From assembly GCA_964611295.1 (NCBI GenBank), contig CAZSWV010000001.1, forward strand, positions 1,869 to 65,868: a stretch of DNA of 64,000 bases, given 5' to 3'. A model generated the notes under the pieces. It was not told where the DNA came from and ran no database searches. It saw only the letters and a list, made by a program, of their open reading frames with translations. Positions 14,689 to 29,872 of this stretch are shown piece by piece. The number at the start of each line of letters is the position of its first letter. The first letter of the stretch is position 1. This DNA is from an uncultured Thermodesulfobacteriota bacterium (GTDB lineage: Bacteria; Desulfobacterota; B13-G15). Made by a program: the position numbers and the translations under genes.

Positions 14689-15663
14689 CTATCCTAAAAA
14701 CCTGAATATGGCCTCCTTTGGGGGTAACCCGCAGTAAAGGACCTCGTATAAAGTTTCGACAATGGGCAACTTAAGGCCTAATCGTCCAGCTTCCCTTTTC
14801 GCTACCTGGGTGGCCCTTACGCCCTCCACTACTTGTCCTATTTCTTCTTGAGCCCTTTGGGGGTTAAGCCCCTGGGCAAGCTTCTCCCCAAAACGACGGT
14901 TTCGACTCAAGGGACTAAAGCTTGTCACTATTAGGTCCCCAAGTCCTGAAATCCCATAAAGGGTCTCTTTCTTCGCCCCTAGGGCCTCTGCCAGGGCGAG
15001 GAGTTCTTCAAAGCCTTTGCTCACTATAACGGACTTCGTGTTGAAACCAAGTCCCATACCATCGCACATCCCTGCTGCAATGGCGAAGACGTTTTTGAAG
15101 GCCCCTCCTACTTCAACACCTACTATGTCATCGGTTGGGTAGAGCTTAAAAAAGGGGGTTTCCAAAAGGTTTTTGGCCTCCAAGGCATCCGAAAGGTCAA
15201 GGGCTGAGGCTGCTACAAGTGTGGGGATCCCTTCTAGGATCTCCCTTGCAATGGAAGGGCCACTAACTACTACAAGCCTATGGTTACATCCCCCCAGTTC
15301 CTCTTCTATAACTTGGCTTAACCTCATCCCAGTGTCAGGCTCTAAACCCTTGGCGAAATTGACGATCAGAGGATTTCCTTGGAGGAAGGACCTTGCTTTT
15401 GCGATCACCTCCCTTACAGCCCCAGAGGGTACTGCACATAAGAGGGCATCAGTACCGTCTAAGGCCTCTTGTAGGTCCGTTGTGGGTTTCACCTCGGGGG
15501 GAAACTTTACCTTGGACAGGTATTTGGGGTTTTCTCGGTAAAGGAGTATGCACTGGAAGACTTCCTCCTCAATGGTCCAGAGCATTACCCTGTGACCTTT
15601 TTCAGCCAAAAGTATAGCGAGGACAGAACCTAAGTTGCCTGCACCTAAGACGGTGACCTTCAT
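14689..15663 (-). CDS. gpsA: NAD(P)H-dependent glycerol-3-phosphate dehydrogenase
   Basis: MKVTVLGAGNLGSVLA Rossmann N-terminus. ATG 15663-15661 forms an ATGA overlap with the upstream gene's stop. The track's longer start at 15693 was rejected. Confidence 0.93.
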   Translation of the reverse strand: MKVTVLGAGNLGSVLAILLAEKGHRVMLWTIEEEVFQCILLYRENPKYLSKVKFPPEVKPTTDLQEALDGTDALLCAVPSGAVREVIAKARSFLQGNPLIVNFAKGLEPDTGMRLSQVIEEELGGCNHRLVVVSGPSIAREILEGIPTLVAASALDLSDALEAKNLLETPFFKLYPTDDIVGVEVGGAFKNVFAIAAGMCDGMGLGFNTKSVIVSKGFEELLALAEALGAKKETLYGISGLGDLIVTSFSPLSRNRRFGEKLAQGLNPQRAQEEIGQVVEGVRATQVAKREAGRLGLKLPIVETLYEVLYCGLPPKEAIFRFLG

Positions 15664-18600
15664 CCCCACCACCTCTCTATTCCGATGGGCCAAGGTACCA
15701 TATCGCCTACCTTTCCCGTCGCCAGGGCGATGACGGTATCGGCTGCGCCGTAATATATCAAAACTTCGTCCTCAAAGGAGAGGATCTCAGTCTCCTCTTG
15801 GGGAACAGCACCACATGTGAAGACCACGTTAGGTACCTGACAACCTGTTTCTCCCTTTTCATAGGGTTCCAAAGGTTCAAGTATAGGATTGGGCGATCGG
15901 TAAAGGATCCACTTGGGGTCTTCTATATCAAGAAGCAAGCTTCCAAGCCTATATATCGACCGCCGATCTACCCCGTGATATATCAAAAGCCAACCGTATC
16001 GAGTCTTAAGGGGCGGCGCACCCGCTCCTATCTTCAAACTATCCCACATATCCCCTGACCTTGGCCCCATTAAGATGCTGTGTTCCATAGAAGGCCAAGG
16101 GCAAGAAATGACCTTGGAAAAGGAGATCCACATCGCTGGTTCTACCCGGTGGACAAGGACGAACTTGCCATCTATCCGTTCCGGGAAGAGGAAGGCGTCT
16201 TTATTGGATTCCCCTGGAAACAACAGGCCGTGTCTCTGCCACTTCTCCCATCTGCCCAAGAGGAAGTCTTCCGGATCTATGGAAGCCAAGGCGATCTGGG
16301 CTACAGCTCGCGAATAGGCAGTGTATAGCATCCACAGCCTCCCCTCAAGCAACACCAACCTAGGGTCTTCGCACCCTAATTCTTCCCAATCCTCCACAGG
16401 CCAAAAGATGGGTTCAGTAAGGCGTTCTATTACCCTTTTCCCCGTCTGGTCCAACACGGCAAGGCCTATCCTTGAGACCATGTCTTCACCCATCGCCCGG
16501 TAAAGGAGGTATATCTTTCCTTTCAGCCTTATAGCGGCTGGGTTGAATACGAACCTGGACTCCCACCCATGTTCTTTGACGGGTCTGAGGATGGGATTGC
16601 CTTCGTACCTTTTAAGTCTTTTGGCAACAGGACCTTTTATGAAGACAGGTCCTTTTGGCTTAAGGACTTCAAACCTAGAAGTCTGTGGGAAAAGCTCCTC
16701 GATTAGGCTTTGTGCTTCTCTGCCTTCAAGTTGCATCTCCCTTATGGCCTTTCTTAAGGACTCATAAGGGACCCCAACCCTGGAAAGGACTCGGGAGAGA
16801 AAGTCCTTTGCAAAGAGCTGAGCCTCTACTTCCGAAGCAAGAGGCCCAGGATTCCCCTTGCCACCACTTAAGCTATAAACTACCCAACTCCAAGCCGAAA
16901 AGGTCACAAACCTTCCTTCGGGGAACTGGAAGCAGAGCTTATAGCCCTCAAGGAGCTTACGAAAGGCGGAAAGGCACAACCCCTCGGCGAGCCCTTTTAA
17001 CCTTTGAAGGGTTTTTTCGTGTACCGAGGCTTCAAATACGCTATAAGCACTCAAGGGATCCCTACCCCAGTGGCCTTCAAGGGCTTCAACTACAGCCCTG
17101 CCAAACTCCTTGCGAGACCTCGAGGCCCAGTCCCAAAGCTCCCCGTAACTTTCAAGTTCCACTAATTTTTTGGTGGTCAATAATACGTATGTGAGCCAAG
17201 GGAATTCAGGTTTTAAGTCCAAAGAAAGGGCTCTCAAGAATAACACTCCGCAGAGCTTATCGGCTAACTCCAATTCCCATATGGAACTCCTCAAAGGACC
17301 AGGCCATGCCAGGGGGACTACCTTTAGGTCCTGTAGTTCAAAGAGATCGGGGCGGAGGTCTTGCAGCATGTGATGTTTCAAGCCTTCCCAGTAAGGGGAA
17401 GACTCGATGGCCCTGGCAAAGGCCAGAAGCTCGCGCGGGGATTCCAGCCTGAGGAGGGGTGAAAACCTTAAGGCCCTCTTAGGCGGAAACCTGTCCAAAA
17501 ACCAACTACAAGCTTTTTCCCCTAAGGTAAAAGTCCCACTAGGCCGAAGGAGAGGAATAAGGGCCTCTAAAAGTTCTCTCAACCCCTCTTTATGCCTAGG
17601 GTCACCCCTTAAGGCATTCCGGAGTTCCTCCTCCGCGGTATATAGCAAGGTTCGGAAAAGCGAAAGCACCTTTTGGGCAGGGGTTCCTTCTTTTACCCCT
17701 AGCGATTCCCTTGCAAAGCTCCAAAAAGCCTCCCTCCGTTCTTCAAGGAGTTCCTTGAAGACCTCCTCCAAAGACTCCCCATTTGCCCTGTGGGGGAAAA
17801 GAAGAGGGATACCGGGCACATACTCACGATAGGTAACCCGCGGAAGCCTGGCCCTCTTCTGCCAGCTGTTGAAGGACTCTTTTAGACATGCCAAAAAGGC
17901 AAGTTCGTCTCTTAGCCTTTCCGATTGTAAAAAGGCAAGGCCAGAATCCAAGGGCTTTCTTTCTTCCTTTGTGAAATCCCTTAACTCATGCAAAAAGGTG
18001 AAGGCCCTTCCGTAAAAGAGGACCGTTAAAGCATTATAAAGGTCTCCTAAGGAAAAAGGACGTGGGTCCCTCAAAGCCCCAAACAGCCCGTACACGGCCT
18101 CTGCCCAGAGATCGCCCTTTAGCCTTATAGGCTCCTTTTTTGCGAGAACCGAGATAAGCCGCTCATGTACCCTTGGTATGACAAAGGTAAACAAGGAAGA
18201 GAAGATAGAGAGGCCCTTCAAGTAGCGGCGTAGGAAGGGTCTTTCGTCTTCTTGAAAGATATACAAGTCCTTTCCCTCGATCCTCGCCTTTGGCCTCAAA
18301 AGGGGAGGAGTTTCCAAAGGGAGTTCTAGGCGCTCCTTCCATATGCTTTCCCTTCGGGAAATCTCGGAAAAGGCCGTCTTTATGACCTTACGGACAACAG
18401 CAGGTTGCCATAGGTTCAAGGCAGGCCTGAAGGACAAAGGGACCTGTAGGATCCTTTTGTTGGTGCAGGAGGCCTCCAAAAGCAACTGGAAGGGGGTAGC
18501 AAAGCTTCCGAGGACTTTGTGGTCGAAAAACCCTAACATCAAGTCCTGAGAAGCCGCAAAGGTTGTCGGAAGGACCTGTTCCACCCTTGCGGAGAAAAGG

Positions 18601-19037
18601 GACACGAACAGGGGTCTTAACAGCAATTGGTCAAGGAGGTCTCCTCCACCGCTTCCAGGGATTACACCAAGACATAAGGAAGCTTCTCCTTCCAGTAAGG
18701 GCAGGAGCAATCCCTCTGTTACCTCCGCAAGGACCACCTCTAAGTCGGCCTCCACGAATCCAGGGTCGATTACCAAAAGATCGGCCTTTTCTTCCACTGC
18801 CTTCTTTACGAACCCGGCAAACCCCTCTTCCACTATCGTATAGGGTGTCTCTAACTCCCTTGCCCCTTCCTTGGGGAGGAGGAAAAAGGGAACTAGTGAG
18901 AACTGCCTTCGGAGGATTTCGTCAAGCCGTTGCATGAGGTAGGAGAGTTTTCCTACCTCCACCCTTTCTTCTAACAAGGGGATTCCTACTGCGACACGCC
19001 TTCGCATTTTGGTCGTTTGCCGTTGATTATCCACCAT
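15660..19037 (-). CDS. large fusion protein: ~800-aa N-terminal region of unknown function + C-terminal GH130 (glycoside phosphorylase, former DUF377) domain
   Basis: 1125 aa. The C-terminal ~310 aa (about 15660-16600) read GNPILRP...FNPAAI...YRAMG...GCEDPRL...YTAY...NKDAFLFPE...GAGAPPLKT..GWLLIYHGVD...YYGAADTVIALA, typical of GH130 beta-mannoside phosphorylases. The N-terminal region has only a weak GT-A-like start (RVAVGIPLLEE). The start could be M1 (19037) or M11 (19007). Confidence 0.75.
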   Translation of the reverse strand: MVDNQRQTTKMRRRVAVGIPLLEERVEVGKLSYLMQRLDEILRRQFSLVPFFLLPKEGARELETPYTIVEEGFAGFVKKAVEEKADLLVIDPGFVEADLEVVLAEVTEGLLLPLLEGEASLCLGVIPGSGGGDLLDQLLLRPLFVSLFSARVEQVLPTTFAASQDLMLGFFDHKVLGSFATPFQLLLEASCTNKRILQVPLSFRPALNLWQPAVVRKVIKTAFSEISRRESIWKERLELPLETPPLLRPKARIEGKDLYIFQEDERPFLRRYLKGLSIFSSLFTFVIPRVHERLISVLAKKEPIRLKGDLWAEAVYGLFGALRDPRPFSLGDLYNALTVLFYGRAFTFLHELRDFTKEERKPLDSGLAFLQSERLRDELAFLACLKESFNSWQKRARLPRVTYREYVPGIPLLFPHRANGESLEEVFKELLEERREAFWSFARESLGVKEGTPAQKVLSLFRTLLYTAEEELRNALRGDPRHKEGLRELLEALIPLLRPSGTFTLGEKACSWFLDRFPPKRALRFSPLLRLESPRELLAFARAIESSPYWEGLKHHMLQDLRPDLFELQDLKVVPLAWPGPLRSSIWELELADKLCGVLFLRALSLDLKPEFPWLTYVLLTTKKLVELESYGELWDWASRSRKEFGRAVVEALEGHWGRDPLSAYSVFEASVHEKTLQRLKGLAEGLCLSAFRKLLEGYKLCFQFPEGRFVTFSAWSWVVYSLSGGKGNPGPLASEVEAQLFAKDFLSRVLSRVGVPYESLRKAIREMQLEGREAQSLIEELFPQTSRFEVLKPKGPVFIKGPVAKRLKRYEGNPILRPVKEHGWESRFVFNPAAIRLKGKIYLLYRAMGEDMVSRIGLAVLDQTGKRVIERLTEPIFWPVEDWEELGCEDPRLVLLEGRLWMLYTAYSRAVAQIALASIDPEDFLLGRWEKWQRHGLLFPGESNKDAFLFPERIDGKFVLVHRVEPAMWISFSKVISCPWPSMEHSILMGPRSGDMWDSLKIGAGAPPLKTRYGWLLIYHGVDRRSIYRLGSLLLDIEDPKWILYRSPNPILEPLEPYEKGETGCQVPNVVFTCGAVPQEETEILSFEDEVLIYYGAADTVIALATGKVGDMVPWPIGIERWWG

Positions 19038-23731: not shown

Positions 23732-23809
23732 TGGCGTCCCCAGGGGGATTTGAACCCCCGTCGCCGGCGTGAAAGGCCGGTATCCTGGGCCTGGCTAGAC
23801 GATGGGGAC
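23732..23809 (-). tRNA. tRNA-Glu (anticodon UUC), CCA encoded
   Basis: The reverse complement reads GTCCCCATCGTCTAGCCAGGCCCAGGATACCGGCCTTTCACGCCGGCGACGGGGGTTCAAATCCCCCTGGGGACGCCA. It has a 7-bp acceptor stem, an anticodon stem CCGGC/GCCGG with loop CTTTCAC, and a T-arm GGGGG-TTCAAAT-CCCCC. Confidence 0.93.
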
Positions 23810-23844: not shown

Positions 23845-26800
23845 TTGAGTCAAGGGATAAAGGCGATAAAACTTTATGGTGTCAGGCAGAACAACCTCAA
23901 GGGATTCGACCTCGAGATCCCTTTATATGCCCTTACTGTAATTACTGGCGTTTCAGGAGCAGGTAAGTCCTCCCTTGCCTTTGGTACCCTTTATGCAGAA
24001 GGACAAAGGCGTTATGTGGAGACTTTTTCCCCCTATGCCAGGCAGTTCATGGAGAAGGTGGACAAACCCAACGTAGAGCGGATCGAGGGCATCCCGCCTG
24101 CGATAGCCATTGAGCAAGGTGACCCTGTCAAAAGCTCAAGGTCTACCGTGGGTACCATGACCGAGATCACGGATTATGTGAAGTTGCTCTTCCCGAGGAT
24201 CGCTACCCTTTACTGTAAAAGTTGCGGCAGGCCGGTGAGACGTTACACACCTGAGGAGGCCTTTGAAGAACTTCGGCCCCTATTGAGGGGAGGAGAGGAA
24301 GTAGTGGTCACCTTTAAGTGGAAAAGGGGTAAAGGAGCCCTTTTGGCCCAAGGGTTTTACAGGGTATGGCAGAGGGGAGAGGTTGTCCCTTTGGAAAGGG
24401 CTGAGGAATCCCCCGTACTTGAGGTAATTGCTGACAGGCTGATTTACAAGGACGAGGAAAAGTCAAGGCTTATTGAGTCCTTTGAGATGGCCCAGAAATG
24501 GGGGGAAGGGAGGTACTCAGTACACCTCCCTGAAGGTAGTTTCCTTTTTTCTCAGGAGCTCGAGTGTCCTTATTGTGAGGTGACTTACAGGGATCCGGTG
24601 CCGAACCTCTTTAGTTTTAACTCTCCTATTGGGGCTTGTGAACGCTGTAAAGGCTTTGGGAGGATAATCGACATAGATTTGGACCTAGTCGTTCCAGATC
24701 CGAATAAGTCCATCCTCCAAGGGGCGATAAAGCCATGGACAGGGGTGGCTAGAGAGGAATTTGAAGACCTTCTTGAGTTCTGTAGGCGAAAGCGCATTCC
24801 AGTTAACGTACCCTGGAAGGACCTTTCAGACGAGCACAAGATGGCCATAATAGAAGGGGACGGGACCTTTTACGGTATAAAGGGCTTTTTCGAATGGCTC
24901 GAAACCAAAAAATACAAACTCCATGTGAGGGTCTTCCTTTCCCGTTACAGGGGTTATCTTCCCTGTCCGCAATGTGGTGGGACCCGGTTCAAAGCTGAAA
25001 CCCTACTTTGGCGGATCAGGGGCAAGAACATCGCAGAGATCTATGCCATGAAGGTAGAGGAAGCCTATGAGTTTTTTGAAAACTTGGCCAGTATGGAACT
25101 GGATGAGGCTTCCAAGCTGTTAATAGAAGAGGTCAAGAGAAGGCTAAAGTACCTCCTGGAGGTGGGTCTCGGTTATCTCACCCTTGACCGACAATCTAGG
25201 ACCCTGTCGGGTGGGGAGGTACAGAGGATAAGCCTCACCAAGGCCTTGGCCTCGTCGCTTGTTAACACCCTTTACGTATTGGATGAGCCTACCGTGGGAC
25301 TTCATGCTTACGACAGTCGCAGGCTTTTGGGACTTCTCAAGAAACTCAGGGATCAAGGAAATACGGTCGTGGTAGTGGAACATGACCCAGAGATCATCAG
25401 AGGGGCCGACTACGTAGTGGACCTGGGGCCTGGGGCAGGGGAAAAGGGAGGAGAGCTTATCTACAGTGGTCCCCCTTCGGGGCTTCTGAAGGAGGAGAGG
25501 TCCCTTACCGGAAAGTACCTTAGCGGCCAACTCAAGATCCCTTTGCCAGATAAAAGGCGTACCCCTTATGGTTGGCTCCTCGTTAAGAATGCAAGGGAAC
25601 ACAACCTCAAAGGTATCCATGTGAGGATCCCCTTGGGTGTAATGGTGGCTGTGACAGGAGTTTCGGGCTCGGGGAAATCCACCCTTGTTGTGGATGTACT
25701 CTATAGGGGCCTTAAGCGCATTAAGGGAGAACCTGAGGAACGCCCAGGGGAGTTTGATGCCATTGAGGGGGAAAGCCTTTTGGAGGACGTGGTCCTTGTA
25801 GATCAGAGGCCTCCTGCGCGGACGCCTAGGGCCACGCCTGTTACTTACATCAAGGCATATGAGCCTATAAGGAAGGCCTTTGCTTCTTTGCCCTTGGCAA
25901 AGGAAAGGGGGTTTACCACCCAACACTTTTCCTTCAATTCCACGTTGGGACGTTGTCCAGAGTGTCTCGGGGCAGGTTTCCAAGAAGTAGAGATGCAGTT
26001 TTTGTCAAACGTCCTGTTACGCTGCCCCAGATGTGGAGGGAAGCGTTTTAAACAAGAAGTCCTCGAAGTCACCTACAAAGGGAAAAACATAGCCGATGTG
26101 CTCGATATGACAGTGGATGAAGCCATGGGTTTCTTTGACGACCCCAAGGTGGCCTTGGCCTTAAGGCCCCTTGTCGAAGTAGGGCTTGGGTACCTCAAGC
26201 TCGGTCAACCTTTGAGCACCCTTTCAGGTGGGGAGGCCCAGAGGTTGAAATTGGCAAGGTTCATGAAAGAAGGGGTCAAGGGGAGGACACTTTTCATCTT
26301 CGATGAACCTACCATAGGGCTACACCCCTCTGACATCTTAAAGCTCCTTGAAGCCTTCAACCGCCTCCTTCGTAAAGGGCATACGGTGCTTGTGGTTGAG
26401 CATAACCCTGAGGTCATAAAGGTAGCCGATTGGGTCATAGACTTAGGGCCTGAGGGAGGTGACAGGGGTGGTTGGGTGGTGGCAGAAGGTACACCCGAGG
26501 AAGTGGCTCGTAAGGATACCTATACGGGACAGGTGCTTAGGGAGTACTTGGAGGCGAGGGTATATACCTTTAAGGAAGAGAGGCCTAAGGAGAAGGGGGT
26601 GGTTGAGGACGTAATAAAGATCAGGGGAGCAAGGGAGCACAACCTCAAAGGGATAGACCTCGATATCCCTCGGGGGAAGATGATAGCCATCACAGGGGTT
26701 TCGGGTTCAGGGAAATCCACCCTTGCCTTTGACATCCTCTTTTCAGAAGGGCAGAGGCGTTATCTGGAATGTCTACCCAATTACATAAGGCAATACCTCA

Positions 26801-29340
26801 AAATCATGGATAGGCCGGACGTGGACCTGGTTGAGGGAATACCGCCTACTGTGGCCATAGAGCAAAGGACGAGTCAGAGCAACAGGCGTTCGACGGTAGC
26901 GACCCTCACCGAGATTTACCATTACCTTAGGCTCCTTTGGAGCAAACTGGGGGTGCAGTATTGTCCAGGTTGTGGCTTCCCTATAGAAGGACATACTGAG
27001 GAAGGGGTGGTAGAAGAGGTCCTTAGGCGCTTTGAGGGAAGGGAGGTGACCCTCTTGGTGCCGGTTGTCCTACAAAGGAAAGGGTATCACAGGGAGCTGT
27101 TCGAAAGGCTCAAGAGGCTCGGCATAAGGGAAGTAGTGGTAGATGGCAAGGTTATGAGGCTTGAAGCCGTTCCAGAATTGGAGAGGTACAAAGAACACAG
27201 CGTCGAGGCTGTACTTGGCAAAGTCCTTATCAAGAGGGATACGGAAAGGCTTTTACGTTTTGGGCTTGAGTTGGGAAAAGGATGGCTTAAGGTGAAGGAG
27301 GCCACAGGAGAAGAGCACCTCTTCAGCACTAAACTTTACTGTCACCGTTGCCATAGGGGATTTGAACCTCTTGACCCGAGGTTGTTTTCCTTCAATAGCC
27401 CAAAGGGTGCTTGCCCTGACTGTCATGGTTTAGGGGGGGTAGAGGACTTCCTCCTTGAGCTTTTGGTTCCAGATCCTTCAAGGCCCCTTTGTAAGGCCTT
27501 TGCGCCTTTCCAACATAAGGACCTGACACGGGAAGGATTAAGGGTTTTGCGGGAACTCGAAGCTAAATTAGGTATAGGGCCTGATGTGCCTTTTTCGAGT
27601 TTAACAGAAAAGTTAAAAAGGGAAGTCCTTTACGGCGGTAGGGGATTCAAAGGGGTTATCCCTATACTTAGGGGGATCGAGGAGTACCTTAGCGATGAGG
27701 TAGGTGAGCTCCTTAAGGAATACAAGGGCTTCAAGGCCTGTAGCCGCTGTGGTGGTAAAAGGTTAAGGGAAGAGGCCCTTTGGGTAAAGCTTAAGGGATG
27801 GGGCATAGGCGATTTTGTGGCCTTAAGCGTAAGCGAGGCAAAAGGGGTAATGGAAGGATGGAAGTTTGAGCCGTGGGAATGGGAAGTGGCCGAAGGGGTA
27901 GTAAGGGAGGTCCTTTCGAGATTGGGATTTCTTGAAGAGGTGGGCCTTGGGTACATAAACCTTGACAGGAGTGGAGACACCCTTTCAGGCGGTGAGGCCC
28001 AAAGGGTGAGGCTTGCGGCCCAACTGGGGTCAAACCTTTGGGGGGTATGTTACGTGCTGGATGAACCGACCATAGGGCTTCATCCTCGTGATAACGCCCT
28101 TCTGCTTTCGGCCCTTGAAAAGCTCAAAGAGAAAGGGAATACGGTCATCGTGGTAGAGCACGACCCAGAGACCATTAAAAGAGCCGATCACATAATCGAC
28201 CTCGGTCCAGGAGCAGGTCCAAAAGGAGGGGAAATAGTCGCCCAGGGAAGTCTAACTGAGGTCTTGAATTCTCCGCTTTCTATCACCGGCAAGTACCTAC
28301 GGGAGGCAAAAAGGGAAATCACCTCGAGGTTGAGGAGCCCTGCGGGATGGGTTGAGGTGATTGGGGCAAAGAAGTTCAACCTCAAAGGGATCAACGTAAG
28401 GATTCCTTTGGGGACCTTTACTTGTGTGACTGGTGTTTCTGGTTCAGGTAAGTCCACCTTGGTAAGGGAAATACTCTACAAGGGTTTGAAGGGACTACTC
28501 CGAGGCGATGGGTTTGTGAAGGATGGTTTTGAGGAGATCAGGGGATGGGAACAATTAAAGAGGGTAGCGGAGGTAGACCACTCTCCTATAGGCAGGACAC
28601 CGAGGTCCACGCCAGCTACCTATGTGGGGGTTTTTGACGAAATAAGGCGTCTTTTCAGCCAAGTGCCCGAATCGCGGCGCCGAGGCTGGACACCCGGGAG
28701 GTTCTCCTTTAACGTAAAAGGAGGACGTTGTGAGACCTGTGGGGGGCAGGGCAAGATAAAAGTTGAAATGGAATTTTTACCCGACGTCTATGTGCTTTGT
28801 GAGGAATGTCAGGGGCGCCGATATAACGAAGAGACCCTTTCGGTCTGCTACAAGGGCAAAAACATCTACGAGGTACTCCAGATGGACTTCGAAGAGGGAC
28901 TTGGGTTTTTCTCCTCGGTGCCTAGCATAAGGAGGGTACTGGAACTTTTAGTGGACATAGGCCTTGGTTACCTCACCTTTGGTCAACCAAGCCCAGAGCT
29001 TTCCGGTGGCGAGGCCCAGAGGATAAAACTAGTAAAGGAACTCTCAAGCCCTTCACGCGGTACCCTTTATATATTGGATGAACCAACCACGGGCCTCCAC
29101 ATGGCCGATATTCAAAGGCTACTTGACATCTTCCACAGGTTAGTGGATAGAGGCGATACAGTCCTTGTCATAGAACACAACCTTGACGTCATAAAGGAAG
29201 CCGATTGGATCATAGACCTCGGTCCTGAAGGCGGTAAAGAAGGAGGATACCTCCTTTTCGAAGGTACCCCCCTTGAACTCCTGAATTGCCAGAGGTCTTA
29301 TACCGCAGAGGCCCTTAGGCGTTATCTTCGAGGAGATTAG
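23845..29340 (+). CDS. tandem (head-to-tail fused) UvrA-like excinuclease ABC subunit A, 1831 aa
   Basis: Two complete UvrA units lie in one frame, at roughly aa 1-905 and 922-1831. There are four Walker A sites (GVSGAGKSS plus 3x GVSGSGKST) and four LSGGE signature motifs. Each unit has zinc-module cysteines (CKSC/CPYC/CERC/CPQC and CPGC/CHRC/CPDC/CSRC). The putative start is TTG. Confidence 0.9.
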   Translation: MSQGIKAIKLYGVRQNNLKGFDLEIPLYALTVITGVSGAGKSSLAFGTLYAEGQRRYVETFSPYARQFMEKVDKPNVERIEGIPPAIAIEQGDPVKSSRSTVGTMTEITDYVKLLFPRIATLYCKSCGRPVRRYTPEEAFEELRPLLRGGEEVVVTFKWKRGKGALLAQGFYRVWQRGEVVPLERAEESPVLEVIADRLIYKDEEKSRLIESFEMAQKWGEGRYSVHLPEGSFLFSQELECPYCEVTYRDPVPNLFSFNSPIGACERCKGFGRIIDIDLDLVVPDPNKSILQGAIKPWTGVAREEFEDLLEFCRRKRIPVNVPWKDLSDEHKMAIIEGDGTFYGIKGFFEWLETKKYKLHVRVFLSRYRGYLPCPQCGGTRFKAETLLWRIRGKNIAEIYAMKVEEAYEFFENLASMELDEASKLLIEEVKRRLKYLLEVGLGYLTLDRQSRTLSGGEVQRISLTKALASSLVNTLYVLDEPTVGLHAYDSRRLLGLLKKLRDQGNTVVVVEHDPEIIRGADYVVDLGPGAGEKGGELIYSGPPSGLLKEERSLTGKYLSGQLKIPLPDKRRTPYGWLLVKNAREHNLKGIHVRIPLGVMVAVTGVSGSGKSTLVVDVLYRGLKRIKGEPEERPGEFDAIEGESLLEDVVLVDQRPPARTPRATPVTYIKAYEPIRKAFASLPLAKERGFTTQHFSFNSTLGRCPECLGAGFQEVEMQFLSNVLLRCPRCGGKRFKQEVLEVTYKGKNIADVLDMTVDEAMGFFDDPKVALALRPLVEVGLGYLKLGQPLSTLSGGEAQRLKLARFMKEGVKGRTLFIFDEPTIGLHPSDILKLLEAFNRLLRKGHTVLVVEHNPEVIKVADWVIDLGPEGGDRGGWVVAEGTPEEVARKDTYTGQVLREYLEARVYTFKEERPKEKGVVEDVIKIRGAREHNLKGIDLDIPRGKMIAITGVSGSGKSTLAFDILFSEGQRRYLECLPNYIRQYLKIMDRPDVDLVEGIPPTVAIEQRTSQSNRRSTVATLTEIYHYLRLLWSKLGVQYCPGCGFPIEGHTEEGVVEEVLRRFEGREVTLLVPVVLQRKGYHRELFERLKRLGIREVVVDGKVMRLEAVPELERYKEHSVEAVLGKVLIKRDTERLLRFGLELGKGWLKVKEATGEEHLFSTKLYCHRCHRGFEPLDPRLFSFNSPKGACPDCHGLGGVEDFLLELLVPDPSRPLCKAFAPFQHKDLTREGLRVLRELEAKLGIGPDVPFSSLTEKLKREVLYGGRGFKGVIPILRGIEEYLSDEVGELLKEYKGFKACSRCGGKRLREEALWVKLKGWGIGDFVALSVSEAKGVMEGWKFEPWEWEVAEGVVREVLSRLGFLEEVGLGYINLDRSGDTLSGGEAQRVRLAAQLGSNLWGVCYVLDEPTIGLHPRDNALLLSALEKLKEKGNTVIVVEHDPETIKRADHIIDLGPGAGPKGGEIVAQGSLTEVLNSPLSITGKYLREAKREITSRLRSPAGWVEVIGAKKFNLKGINVRIPLGTFTCVTGVSGSGKSTLVREILYKGLKGLLRGDGFVKDGFEEIRGWEQLKRVAEVDHSPIGRTPRSTPATYVGVFDEIRRLFSQVPESRRRGWTPGRFSFNVKGGRCETCGGQGKIKVEMEFLPDVYVLCEECQGRRYNEETLSVCYKGKNIYEVLQMDFEEGLGFFSSVPSIRRVLELLVDIGLGYLTFGQPSPELSGGEAQRIKLVKELSSPSRGTLYILDEPTTGLHMADIQRLLDIFHRLVDRGDTVLVIEHNLDVIKEADWIIDLGPEGGKEGGYLLFEGTPLELLNCQRSYTAEALRRYLRGD

Positions 29341-29767
29341 CCCCTATTTCGAGGAGCTGTACCTCAAAGATAAGATCCTCACCTGCTAAAGGATGGTTAG
29401 CATCAAGGGTCACCGTGTCATCGGAGAGGTCTACTACCGTTACCCTGAAGGCCTGTCCTTGAGGATCCCTCAAGAGCAACTGCTGCCCTACTTCCAGGTG
29501 CATTTCCTGGGGAAGCCTCTCCCTTTCGATCACAAGCACTAGCTCTTCCCTATAAGGTCCAAAGGCTTCTTCAGCCGGCACTTCGAAGGTTTTGGACTCA
29601 CCAGGACTCATCCCGATTATCGCCTCTTCGAAGGCAGGTATCAACTGACCAAGCCCCAAGGTGAACTCCAAGGGCTCACCCCCTACAGACGTGTCAAACA
29701 CCGTGCCATCACGTAACCTCCCCGTGTAATGGACCTTCACCACATCACCTACTTTAGCCTTCACCAT
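29315..29767 (-). CDS. slyD: FKBP-type peptidyl-prolyl cis-trans isomerase (SlyD-like, with IF insert, no His tail)
   Basis: Reads MVKAKVGDVVKVHYTGRLRDGTVFDTS...LDANHPLAGEDLIFEVQLLEI. I chose ATG 29767 (GGAGC upstream) over the track start 29824. The 3' end overlaps the uvrA-like 3' end by 26 nt, convergently. Confidence 0.88.
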   Translation of the reverse strand: MVKAKVGDVVKVHYTGRLRDGTVFDTSVGGEPLEFTLGLGQLIPAFEEAIIGMSPGESKTFEVPAEEAFGPYREELVLVIERERLPQEMHLEVGQQLLLRDPQGQAFRVTVVDLSDDTVTLDANHPLAGEDLIFEVQLLEIGANLLEDNA

Positions 29768-29872
29768 CACCTTTGCTCCTTCCGCCTCAAGAGAGGCAAA
29801 AATTTTTATTAGTATATACCCCATACCACAACGATGTCAAAAAAGAAAAAGACCTAAAACAAAGCCAAAAAC

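Follow-up and report, generated by a model that had tools for sequence, protein, structure and literature searches.

A double-length UvrA with unequally conserved halves, a candidate asymmetric pseudo-dimer for nucleotide excision repair

UvrA acts as a head-to-head dimer built around a core of four nucleotide-binding domains (NBDs) (PMC5128194). How an asymmetric outcome arises from this symmetric dimer is debated, and mutations introduced into the homodimer hit both protomers, whereas the halves of a single chain can be mutated one at a time. Such a chain is encoded in the stretch of DNA analysed here (the window, 64,000 nucleotides of contig CAZSWV010000001.1 from an uncultured Thermodesulfobacteriota bacterium), in which one gene joins two UvrA units head-to-tail. 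The locus raises the question of whether the two units of this double UvrA form one repair complex within the chain and, if so, whether they are equal partners. Comparison with relatives shows that the halves have specialised unequally since the fusion, as judged from the residues and domains that each has kept. We consider it probable (about 0.6) that the protein acts in nucleotide excision repair as a UvrA pseudo-dimer, covalent and with its asymmetry hard-wired, both protomers being supplied by one polypeptide.

Two complete class I units in one reading frame

In the list of open reading frames (ORFs), the double uvrA gene occupies positions 23845..29340 on the plus strand; it has a TTG start and encodes 1831 aa, the stop codon being included in these coordinates. 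Unit 1 (aa 1-905, 23845..26559, +) is a complete class I UvrA of an 'Aminicenantes-like' subtype, and its C-terminal end, ...DTYTGQVLREYLEAR, falls at aa 905 (nt 26559). A linker of 17 aa, VYTFKEERPKEKGVVED (aa 906-922, 26560..26610, +), leads without stop or frameshift into unit 2 (aa 923-1831, 26611..29337, +), likewise a complete class I UvrA but closer to the canonical form in its core. Unit 2 begins with VIKIRGAREHNLKG at aa 923 (nt 26611). The initial annotation, made from the letters and translations, had described a single ORF holding two complete head-to-tail UvrA units, and the ORF, its coordinates and the profile matches all agree with that description. The end of unit 1, the 17-aa linker and the restart of unit 2 were read from the ORF translation where it had placed them, and inspection of the DNA across the junction bore out its statement that the frame continues without a stop. 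No promoter-like or terminator-like site was found at the unit 1/unit 2 junction.

The two units are 44% identical over 920 aligned columns (BLASTP, E=0). Over the first ~83 residues they are 55% identical, in keeping with the earlier estimate by eye of about one half over the first ~85. Identity to E. coli UvrA is 41.9% for unit 1 and 46.8% for unit 2. DNA repeats between the halves are all short and 68-88% identical, and they code for Walker and signature motifs, occurring once per ATPase module. Because these short motif-coding repeats are the only ones between the halves, a repeat-driven assembly mis-join is excluded; the divergence is old, as had been proposed from the first reading, with the halves 44% identical to each other and each 42-47% identical to the E. 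coli protein.

Profile scores, motifs, zinc modules, domain layout and predicted fold all mark both units as class I UvrAs. The whole protein scores 2100.5 bits against TIGR00630 (cut-off 729.8) and 2132.9 bits against NF001503 (cut-off 1147), in both cases over two full-length stretches. Taken alone, the units both pass TIGR00630 (990.7 bits for unit 1, 1116.4 for unit 2); on NF001503, unit 1 scores 990.6 bits, below the cut-off of 1147, and unit 2 scores 1146.9, which is 0.1 bit below it. Each half aligns with solved class I UvrAs over ~900 residues at E values of 1e-252 or lower. AlphaFold2, run on each unit separately with family alignments, gave a model of unit 1 with pLDDT 88.1 and pTM 0.78 (TM 0.91, 3.4 Å to 3uwx_A) and a model of unit 2 with pLDDT 86.8 and pTM 0.78 (TM 0.89, 3.8 Å to 3zqj_D). 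Like the protomers of the canonical class I homodimer (2r6f, 3uwx, 3pih, 3zqj, 9ga2-9ga5, 9gxk), with which the models superpose at TM 0.88-0.91, each unit has two ABC ATPase modules and three zinc modules, NBD-I housing the UvrB-binding and insertion domains and NBD-II the C-terminal zinc finger. Unlike those protomers, the two units reside in one chain and are not identical. Class II proteins (D. radiodurans UvrA2, 2vf7; Ecm16, 7sh1; DrrC) are likewise UvrA-family ABC ATPases, some of them head-to-tail doubles, but both units of the window's protein have a UvrB-binding domain and three zinc modules. Since this domain and all Zn1 cysteines are present in both, a class II identity was ruled out for either unit.

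Conservation was followed across close relatives, of which a 90%-clustered protein collection holds at least 120 clusters (1728-1897 aa, 54-100% identity). All four ATPase modules are complete in the window's protein, and the motif positions are essentially invariant across 120 relatives. The Walker A consensus GxSGxGKS starts at aa 35, 605, 951 and 1530. It reads GVSGAGKS in module 1 (aa 35-42, 23947..23970, +; G,S,G,G,K,S invariant in 120/120) and GVSGSGKS in module 2 (aa 605-612, 25657..25680, +; invariant in 120/120), module 3 (aa 951-958, 26695..26718, +; G,S,G,S,G,K,S invariant in 120/120) and module 4 (aa 1530-1537, 28432..28455, +; G,V,S,G,G,K,S invariant in 120/120). The signature LSGGE starts at aa 454, 793, 1380 and 1719, Walker B (DEPTxGLH) at aa 480, 820, 1406 and 1745, and the H-loop EH lies in segments at aa 510, 850, 1436 and 1775. 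Twelve CxxC pairs, 24 Cys in all, make up the three zinc modules of each unit, and every one of these Cys is invariant in 120/120, including those of the C-terminal zinc fingers of unit 1 (C704, C707, C727, C730; 25954..26034, +) and unit 2 (C1629, C1632, C1652, C1655; 28729..28809, +). On the alignment, no Walker, signature or H-loop motif and no zinc ligand is lost in either half; the initial annotation had named loss of Walker or signature motifs from one half as grounds for refutation. For the ATPase and signature domains, conservation is much the same in the two units. The alignments show four ATPase sites and six zinc modules that are intact and evidently under purifying selection; by this measure, both halves are being maintained as enzymes.

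The linker is of variable sequence across the family, 18-30 aa long by the measure used and rich in P/A/R/G/E/S, whereas the UvrA C-terminal and N-terminal ends that flank it are conserved among relatives. Because length and sequence vary while the flanks are conserved, the pattern is that expected of a passive flexible tether.

Unequal conservation of the accessory domains

Both units keep the segment between the Zn1 cysteine pairs, as had been noted at first reading. The UvrB-binding domain measures 113 residues in unit 1 (aa 128-240, 24226..24564, +, between the pairs C124/C127 and C241/C244) and 122 in unit 2 (aa 1044-1165, 26974..27339, +), against 129 in E. coli. The domain of unit 1 is ~13 aa shorter than its E. 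coli counterpart, a trait common to stand-alone Aminicenantes UvrAs; AlphaFold2 predicts a folded domain (pLDDT 89-96) whose helices and strands follow one another as they do in unit 2. The unit 2 domain has a canonical fold and a canonical N-terminal half. Domain-level scores are higher for unit 2: Pfam UvrA_inter gives 63.5 bits for unit 2 and 26.0 bits for unit 1, and the isolated interaction-domain constructs 4dfc_B and 3fpn_A match unit 2 at 6e-12 and 3e-8 and unit 1 at 0.084 and 0.004, respectively. Unit 2 as the UvrB-binding half, a choice that these Pfam and PDB domain scores favoured, was rejected, as residue-level conservation places the contact residues in unit 1.

In E. coli UvrA, the double change R216A/E222A serves to disrupt the surface that interacts with UvrB, probably the same one that Mfd uses (PMC3025350). 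The corresponding helix of unit 1 (aa 197-220, 24433..24504, +) carries the UvrB-contact residues D197, R198, R208, S212 and E214. R208, the equivalent of E. coli R216, is found in 120/120 relatives, E214, the equivalent of E222, in 118/120, and D197 in 120/120; D197, R198, R208, S212, E214 and G220 are each kept in 117-120 of the 120. The equivalent segment of unit 2 is variable across the family and does not preserve the R216/E222 surface known from E. coli. In the window's protein it reads TERL---LRFGLE, with R1135 at the R216 position, a 3-aa deletion and no Glu. The initial annotation had taken LLVPVVLQRKGYH in unit 2 for the UvrB-binding region. That segment does belong to the N-terminal part of the UvrB-binding domain, but the R216/E222 contact residues are conserved in unit 1 and not in unit 2. 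Other groups of double UvrAs keep the R216 equivalent in both units, so the loss of this surface from unit 2 is, on present alignments, particular to the window's group.

The insertion domains lie between the Zn2 cysteine pairs and measure 105 residues in each unit, compared with 125 in E. coli. In the alignment, both lack the ~20-aa beta-hairpin of E. coli UvrA, and AlphaFold2 predicts both as four-helix units. The insertion domain of unit 1 (aa 269-373, 24649..24963, +) contains the conserved motif FYGIKGFFEWLETKKYKLHVRVFLSRYR; that of unit 2 (aa 1194-1298, 27424..27738, +) is predicted to be folded (pLDDT 81-92) and is poorly conserved. Within the family, mean pairwise identity of the domain is 0.64 for unit 1 and 0.39 for unit 2. 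In the window's group, which comprises 61 sampled proteins in the tree described below, the unit 1 insertion domain is full length in 61/61 (96-120 residues), with 0 changes on the tree. The unit 2 domain covers a continuous range of lengths from 133 down to 10 residues; 42/61 members have a shortened domain or none, which requires at least 12 changes on the tree.

The same one-sidedness appears when domain layouts are written as unit 1/unit 2, with B for the UvrB-binding domain and I for the insertion domain. The window's protein is BI/BI. Among the 120 close relatives, 47 are BI/BI, 68 are BI/B- and 5 are BI/Bi; in the 68, the equivalent of window aa 1203-1293 is deleted from unit 2. Among 150 diverse representatives there are 37 BI/BI, 31 BI/B-, 7 BI/Bi, 27 -I/-I and 3 B-/BI. 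The suggestion in the initial annotation that the halves can diverge functionally is thus upheld by the unequal conservation of the insertion domain and of the UvrB-contact residues. This consistent one-sided specialisation in the window's group may be what is novel about the protein.

Distribution and ancestry of double-length UvrAs

The close relatives come from assemblies of NCBI, JGI, ENA and Logan, with contigs as long as 1.6 Mb and 4.8 Mb among them, and all those that are named are labelled plain excinuclease ABC subunit A or UvrA. The diverse representatives were collected with unit 2 as the query against 1.84 billion 50%-identity representatives. That search listed 150 proteins, nearly all of 1300-2340 aa; it was ranked by summed score, so that doubles alone were listed and no diverse single UvrAs. 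Matching against E. coli UvrA found two UvrA units in 270/270 of the collected proteins. Judged by this spread, the double UvrA is a real, conserved and widespread gene. The fused architecture is already known from RefSeq and NCBIfam and is abundant in metagenomes. Because NCBIfam already curates a double-length UvrA, NF001885, the architecture is not new, and its novelty had been overstated in the initial annotation: the double form is found in ~150 diverse 50%-identity clusters, annotated as UvrA. Our literature searches found no paper on double-length UvrA in the library covered; reviews of UvrA paralogues reportedly mention duplicated forms.

We built a neighbour-joining tree of the split units, E. 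coli UvrA and eight single UvrAs from 628 core columns, leaving out the accessory domains. The tree rests on identity-based distances without support values, with E. coli and Aminicenantes proteins as its singles, and its branching is approximate. In it, the unit 1s of the window's group form one clade and the unit 2s another. Source names in the group include Deltaproteobacteria/Thermodesulfobacteriota, Syntrophales, Planctomycetota, candidate division CSSED10-310 and the hot-spring 'bacterium HR30'. Because the unit 1s and the unit 2s each form one clade, the tree implies one old fusion, in the ancestor of a large group that spans several phyla. Rather than being sisters, the two clades lie apart: that of unit 1 is sister to stand-alone Aminicenantes/Saccharicenans UvrAs. 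By identity, E. coli UvrA is nearer unit 2. As the tree places them, therefore, the fusion joined two UvrA lineages that were already deeply diverged, and the double did not arise as a recent tandem copy.

The stand-alone UvrAs of Aminicenantes and Ca. Saccharicenans (loci L001-L014, ~905 aa) share with unit 1 the shortened UvrB-binding domain and the insertion domain without a hairpin. Both also carry an FYGxxGFFxWLExKxYKxxVRVxLSRYR-like motif and the R216/E222 equivalents, and the singles are 51.6% identical to unit 1 and 45% identical to unit 2. Unlike the window's protein, they are products of single genes (e.g., L001:10001-12721) with no second uvrA within 10 kb, and they presumably form ordinary homodimers.

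Three other sizeable clade pairs of double UvrAs were recovered: class II-like doubles without a UvrB-binding domain (32 proteins), a chlamydial-containing pair (15) and a pair nearer E. coli UvrA (14). Double-length proteins thus fall into at least four clade pairs that differ in domain content (BI/BI, BI/B-, -I/-I and BI/-I). A class II-like example is the 1629-aa protein of Acanthopleuribacter pedis (WP_207861754.1), which has the name 'ATP-binding cassette domain-containing protein'; the -I/-I layout occurs in 27/150 representatives. Source names do not separate the types of double, most being plain UvrA, and the single label 'UvrA' on all these proteins of ~1750-1900 aa masks at least four double-UvrA groups. 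Two further proteins (P0123, 2334 aa; P0128, 2343 aa) are double UvrAs that form a clade pair of their own and carry a C-terminal extension of ~350 aa. The extension consists of two internal repeats of ~170 aa (MPW..DGRRWH..DR / MPWKVNGERWHLGDKGFPP) and has no Pfam match at E<=1.

The closest curated counterpart is the chlamydial double UvrA (NF001885/PRK00635, 1809 positions). It too is a head-to-tail class I fusion of ~1800 aa annotated as excinuclease ABC subunit A, and chlamydial UvrA entries in general are presumably of about that length, ~1800 aa. The protein of Ca. Similichlamydia laticola (WP_220253877.1) aligns over the full NF001885 model and scores 1040 bits; the window's protein scores 1349.4 bits on the same model, against a cut-off of 3054. 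The units of the window's group and those of the chlamydial doubles fall in different clades (2 and 3 versus 14 and 15, in this tree without support values), which sets the two groups apart and possibly points to separate fusion events. The chlamydial-type group keeps the R216 equivalent in both units (14/15 and 15/15), whereas the window's group has lost it in unit 2.

The paired complex and its genomic setting

Asymmetry within a UvrA dimer has precedents. In the ordinary M. tuberculosis UvrA dimer, the insertion domains show a 'division of labor' between a recognition-ID and a support-ID; a UvrA2UvrB1 intermediate has been reported, and UvrB binding and contact of the insertion domain with DNA are sterically exclusive on the same protomer (PMC11985968). 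Whether A2B2 or A2B1 is the working stoichiometry is debated, the outcome being one UvrB on the damaged strand (PMC11985968). Asymmetry imposed on a homodimer by the lesion would, in the window's protein, be encoded in the sequence. An analogy is offered by the MutS homodimer and the eukaryotic MSH2-MSH6 heterodimer, a repair ATPase dimer that is asymmetric on DNA and that in some lineages has become a pair of non-identical partners, with the lesion-contacting elements kept by one alone; the MSH partners differ from the window's protein in belonging to another protein family and in being separate, unfused polypeptides.

We propose that units 1 and 2 would pair within the chain into a saddle-shaped core of four NBDs. 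Unit 1 would be the fully equipped protomer, its insertion domain gripping and probing damaged DNA and its R216/E222-type surface recruiting UvrB and probably Mfd. Unit 2 would act as the core partner, contributing ATPase activity, the DNA contacts of signature-II and of the zinc finger, and half of the DNA groove, while its own insertion domain and UvrB-contact residues would have become dispensable. Because unit 1 holds both accessory functions and those of unit 2 are dispensable, such a built-in asymmetric sensor would be expected to load a single UvrB per complex, in A2B1-like fashion, and it could serve either strand by binding DNA in either orientation. A stricter form of the proposal, in which the one insertion domain and one UvrB surface of unit 1 suffice (A-A'·B1, not A2B2) and unit 2 is needed only for the ATPase core and the DNA groove, we put forward tentatively, at somewhat less than even odds.

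A first alternative is that the double UvrA is an accessory paralogue that works beside an ordinary single uvrA elsewhere in the genome, for example in Mfd transcription-coupled repair or, as for class II proteins, in tolerance of lesions or DNA-binding compounds. The initial annotation had reported no uvrB or uvrC adjacent to the gene, and tblastn with E. coli proteins confirmed this for the whole 64-kb window, where no uvrB, uvrC, mfd or further uvrA was found. There are well-documented cases of UvrA paralogues that have roles of their own (class II UvrA, Ecm16, DrrC), unit 1 alone stays under the NF001503 cut-off, and E. coli UvrA without its insertion domain is biased to transcription-coupled repair (PMC3025350), the insertion domain being what unit 2 tends to lose. 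Both units, however, are class I and not class II in fold and domain content, the UvrB-contact residues of unit 1 are almost invariant, and the unit 1 subtype stands alone in Aminicenantes, with no second uvrA nearby. Genes of the uvr system are normally scattered in bacterial genomes, so the absence of uvr neighbours is uninformative. To our knowledge, the chlamydial double UvrA is the sole UvrA in those genomes. We regard an accessory role as unlikely.

A second alternative, which we judge slightly less likely still, is that the fusion merely tethers units that pair between chains, as unit 1-unit 1, unit 2-unit 2 or chain-swapped dimers, giving the equivalent of two dimers or open polymers. 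The window's linker is short, at 17 aa, and both units keep everything that UvrA protomers need, as this alternative would have it. A unit 2-unit 2 dimer, however, would be without UvrB-contact residues, and in most relatives also without an insertion domain, yet the catalytic and DNA-binding motifs of unit 2 are invariant, which would then be hard to explain. Repeated one-sided loss of accessory domains, moreover, would be expected only of a unit 2 that invariably has unit 1 as its working partner, and a non-conserved linker of variable length fits a passive tether between partners that already match. These points favour pairing within the chain, most strongly the evolutionary ones, namely the one-sided loss and the invariant motifs of unit 2. 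Finally, the joining of two adjacent uvrA genes by a sequencing or assembly error at the junction is effectively refuted by the many independent projects in which the architecture is uninterrupted (at least 120 close clusters and ~150 diverse representatives), by RefSeq/GenBank entries and several near-identical copies of one relative (P0009) on different contigs, and by conserved linker flanks and the lack of long repeats.

Several observations weigh against an asymmetric pseudo-dimer of the kind proposed. The window's own unit 2 still has an insertion domain that is predicted to fold, and Arg still occupies its R216 position; most relatives have thus gone further towards asymmetry than this protein. 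The UvrB-binding domain of unit 2 is kept in 58/61 group members, its N-terminal half (P..RKGxH...DG) is well conserved, and it matches the interaction-domain constructs better than that of unit 1; the domain thus appears to be still selected for something, possibly for binding UvrB or Mfd by a different set of contacts. According to the M. tuberculosis model, the support-ID protomer takes the first UvrB, with the lesion proposed to move on to the UvrB of the opposite protomer (PMC11985968). A protein whose sole canonical UvrB surface and sole conserved insertion domain are both on unit 1 does not fit this hand-off scheme in any simple way. The approximate nature of the tree counts on the same side.

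Within this family, one of the two UvrA units of the chain repeatedly loses its insertion domain and UvrB-contact residues, and the family therefore points to elements that are needed once per complex. If the stricter form of the proposal holds, evolution has carried out a protomer-specific deletion, impossible on a homodimer, at least 12 times, and the family would offer a single-chain scaffold in which the four ATPase sites and each accessory domain can be mutated separately.

The gene lies between two neighbours on the opposite strand. Upstream, tRNA-Glu(TTC) (23732-23809, -) ends 36 nt before the TTG start of the double uvrA; this gap leaves scant room for a promoter, and a weak minus-strand promoter-like match overlaps the uvrA start. 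At the 3' end, a convergent gene for an FKBP-type peptidyl-prolyl isomerase (29315-29824, -) overlaps the double uvrA by 26 nt, and this arrangement recurs in the 67%-identical relative P0009 (loci L017 and L018). Farther upstream are ruvB, purine-metabolism and hydrolase genes and a nitroreductase; downstream are a TetR regulator and Hdr-like redox genes. At the P0009 locus, a reverse gyrase lies ~2 kb downstream of the double uvrA and suggests a thermophilic lineage. It is present as two ORFs (270 + 851 aa) on a 1.6 Mb contig (L017:16339-19759) and as one 1139-aa ORF on a Logan contig (L018:7473-10892), which reflects either a frameshift or an assembly difference.

Elsewhere in the window, a 1125-aa ORF (15660-19037, -) matches GH130 mannooligosaccharide phosphorylase over its C-terminal ~300 aa, and for its N-terminal ~800 aa Pfam gave no match at E<=1e-5. 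Nearly all of the window (1-64000) shows positive GC skew, and the cumulative skew climbs steadily, the exception being ~12-18 kb, where genes lie on the minus strand.

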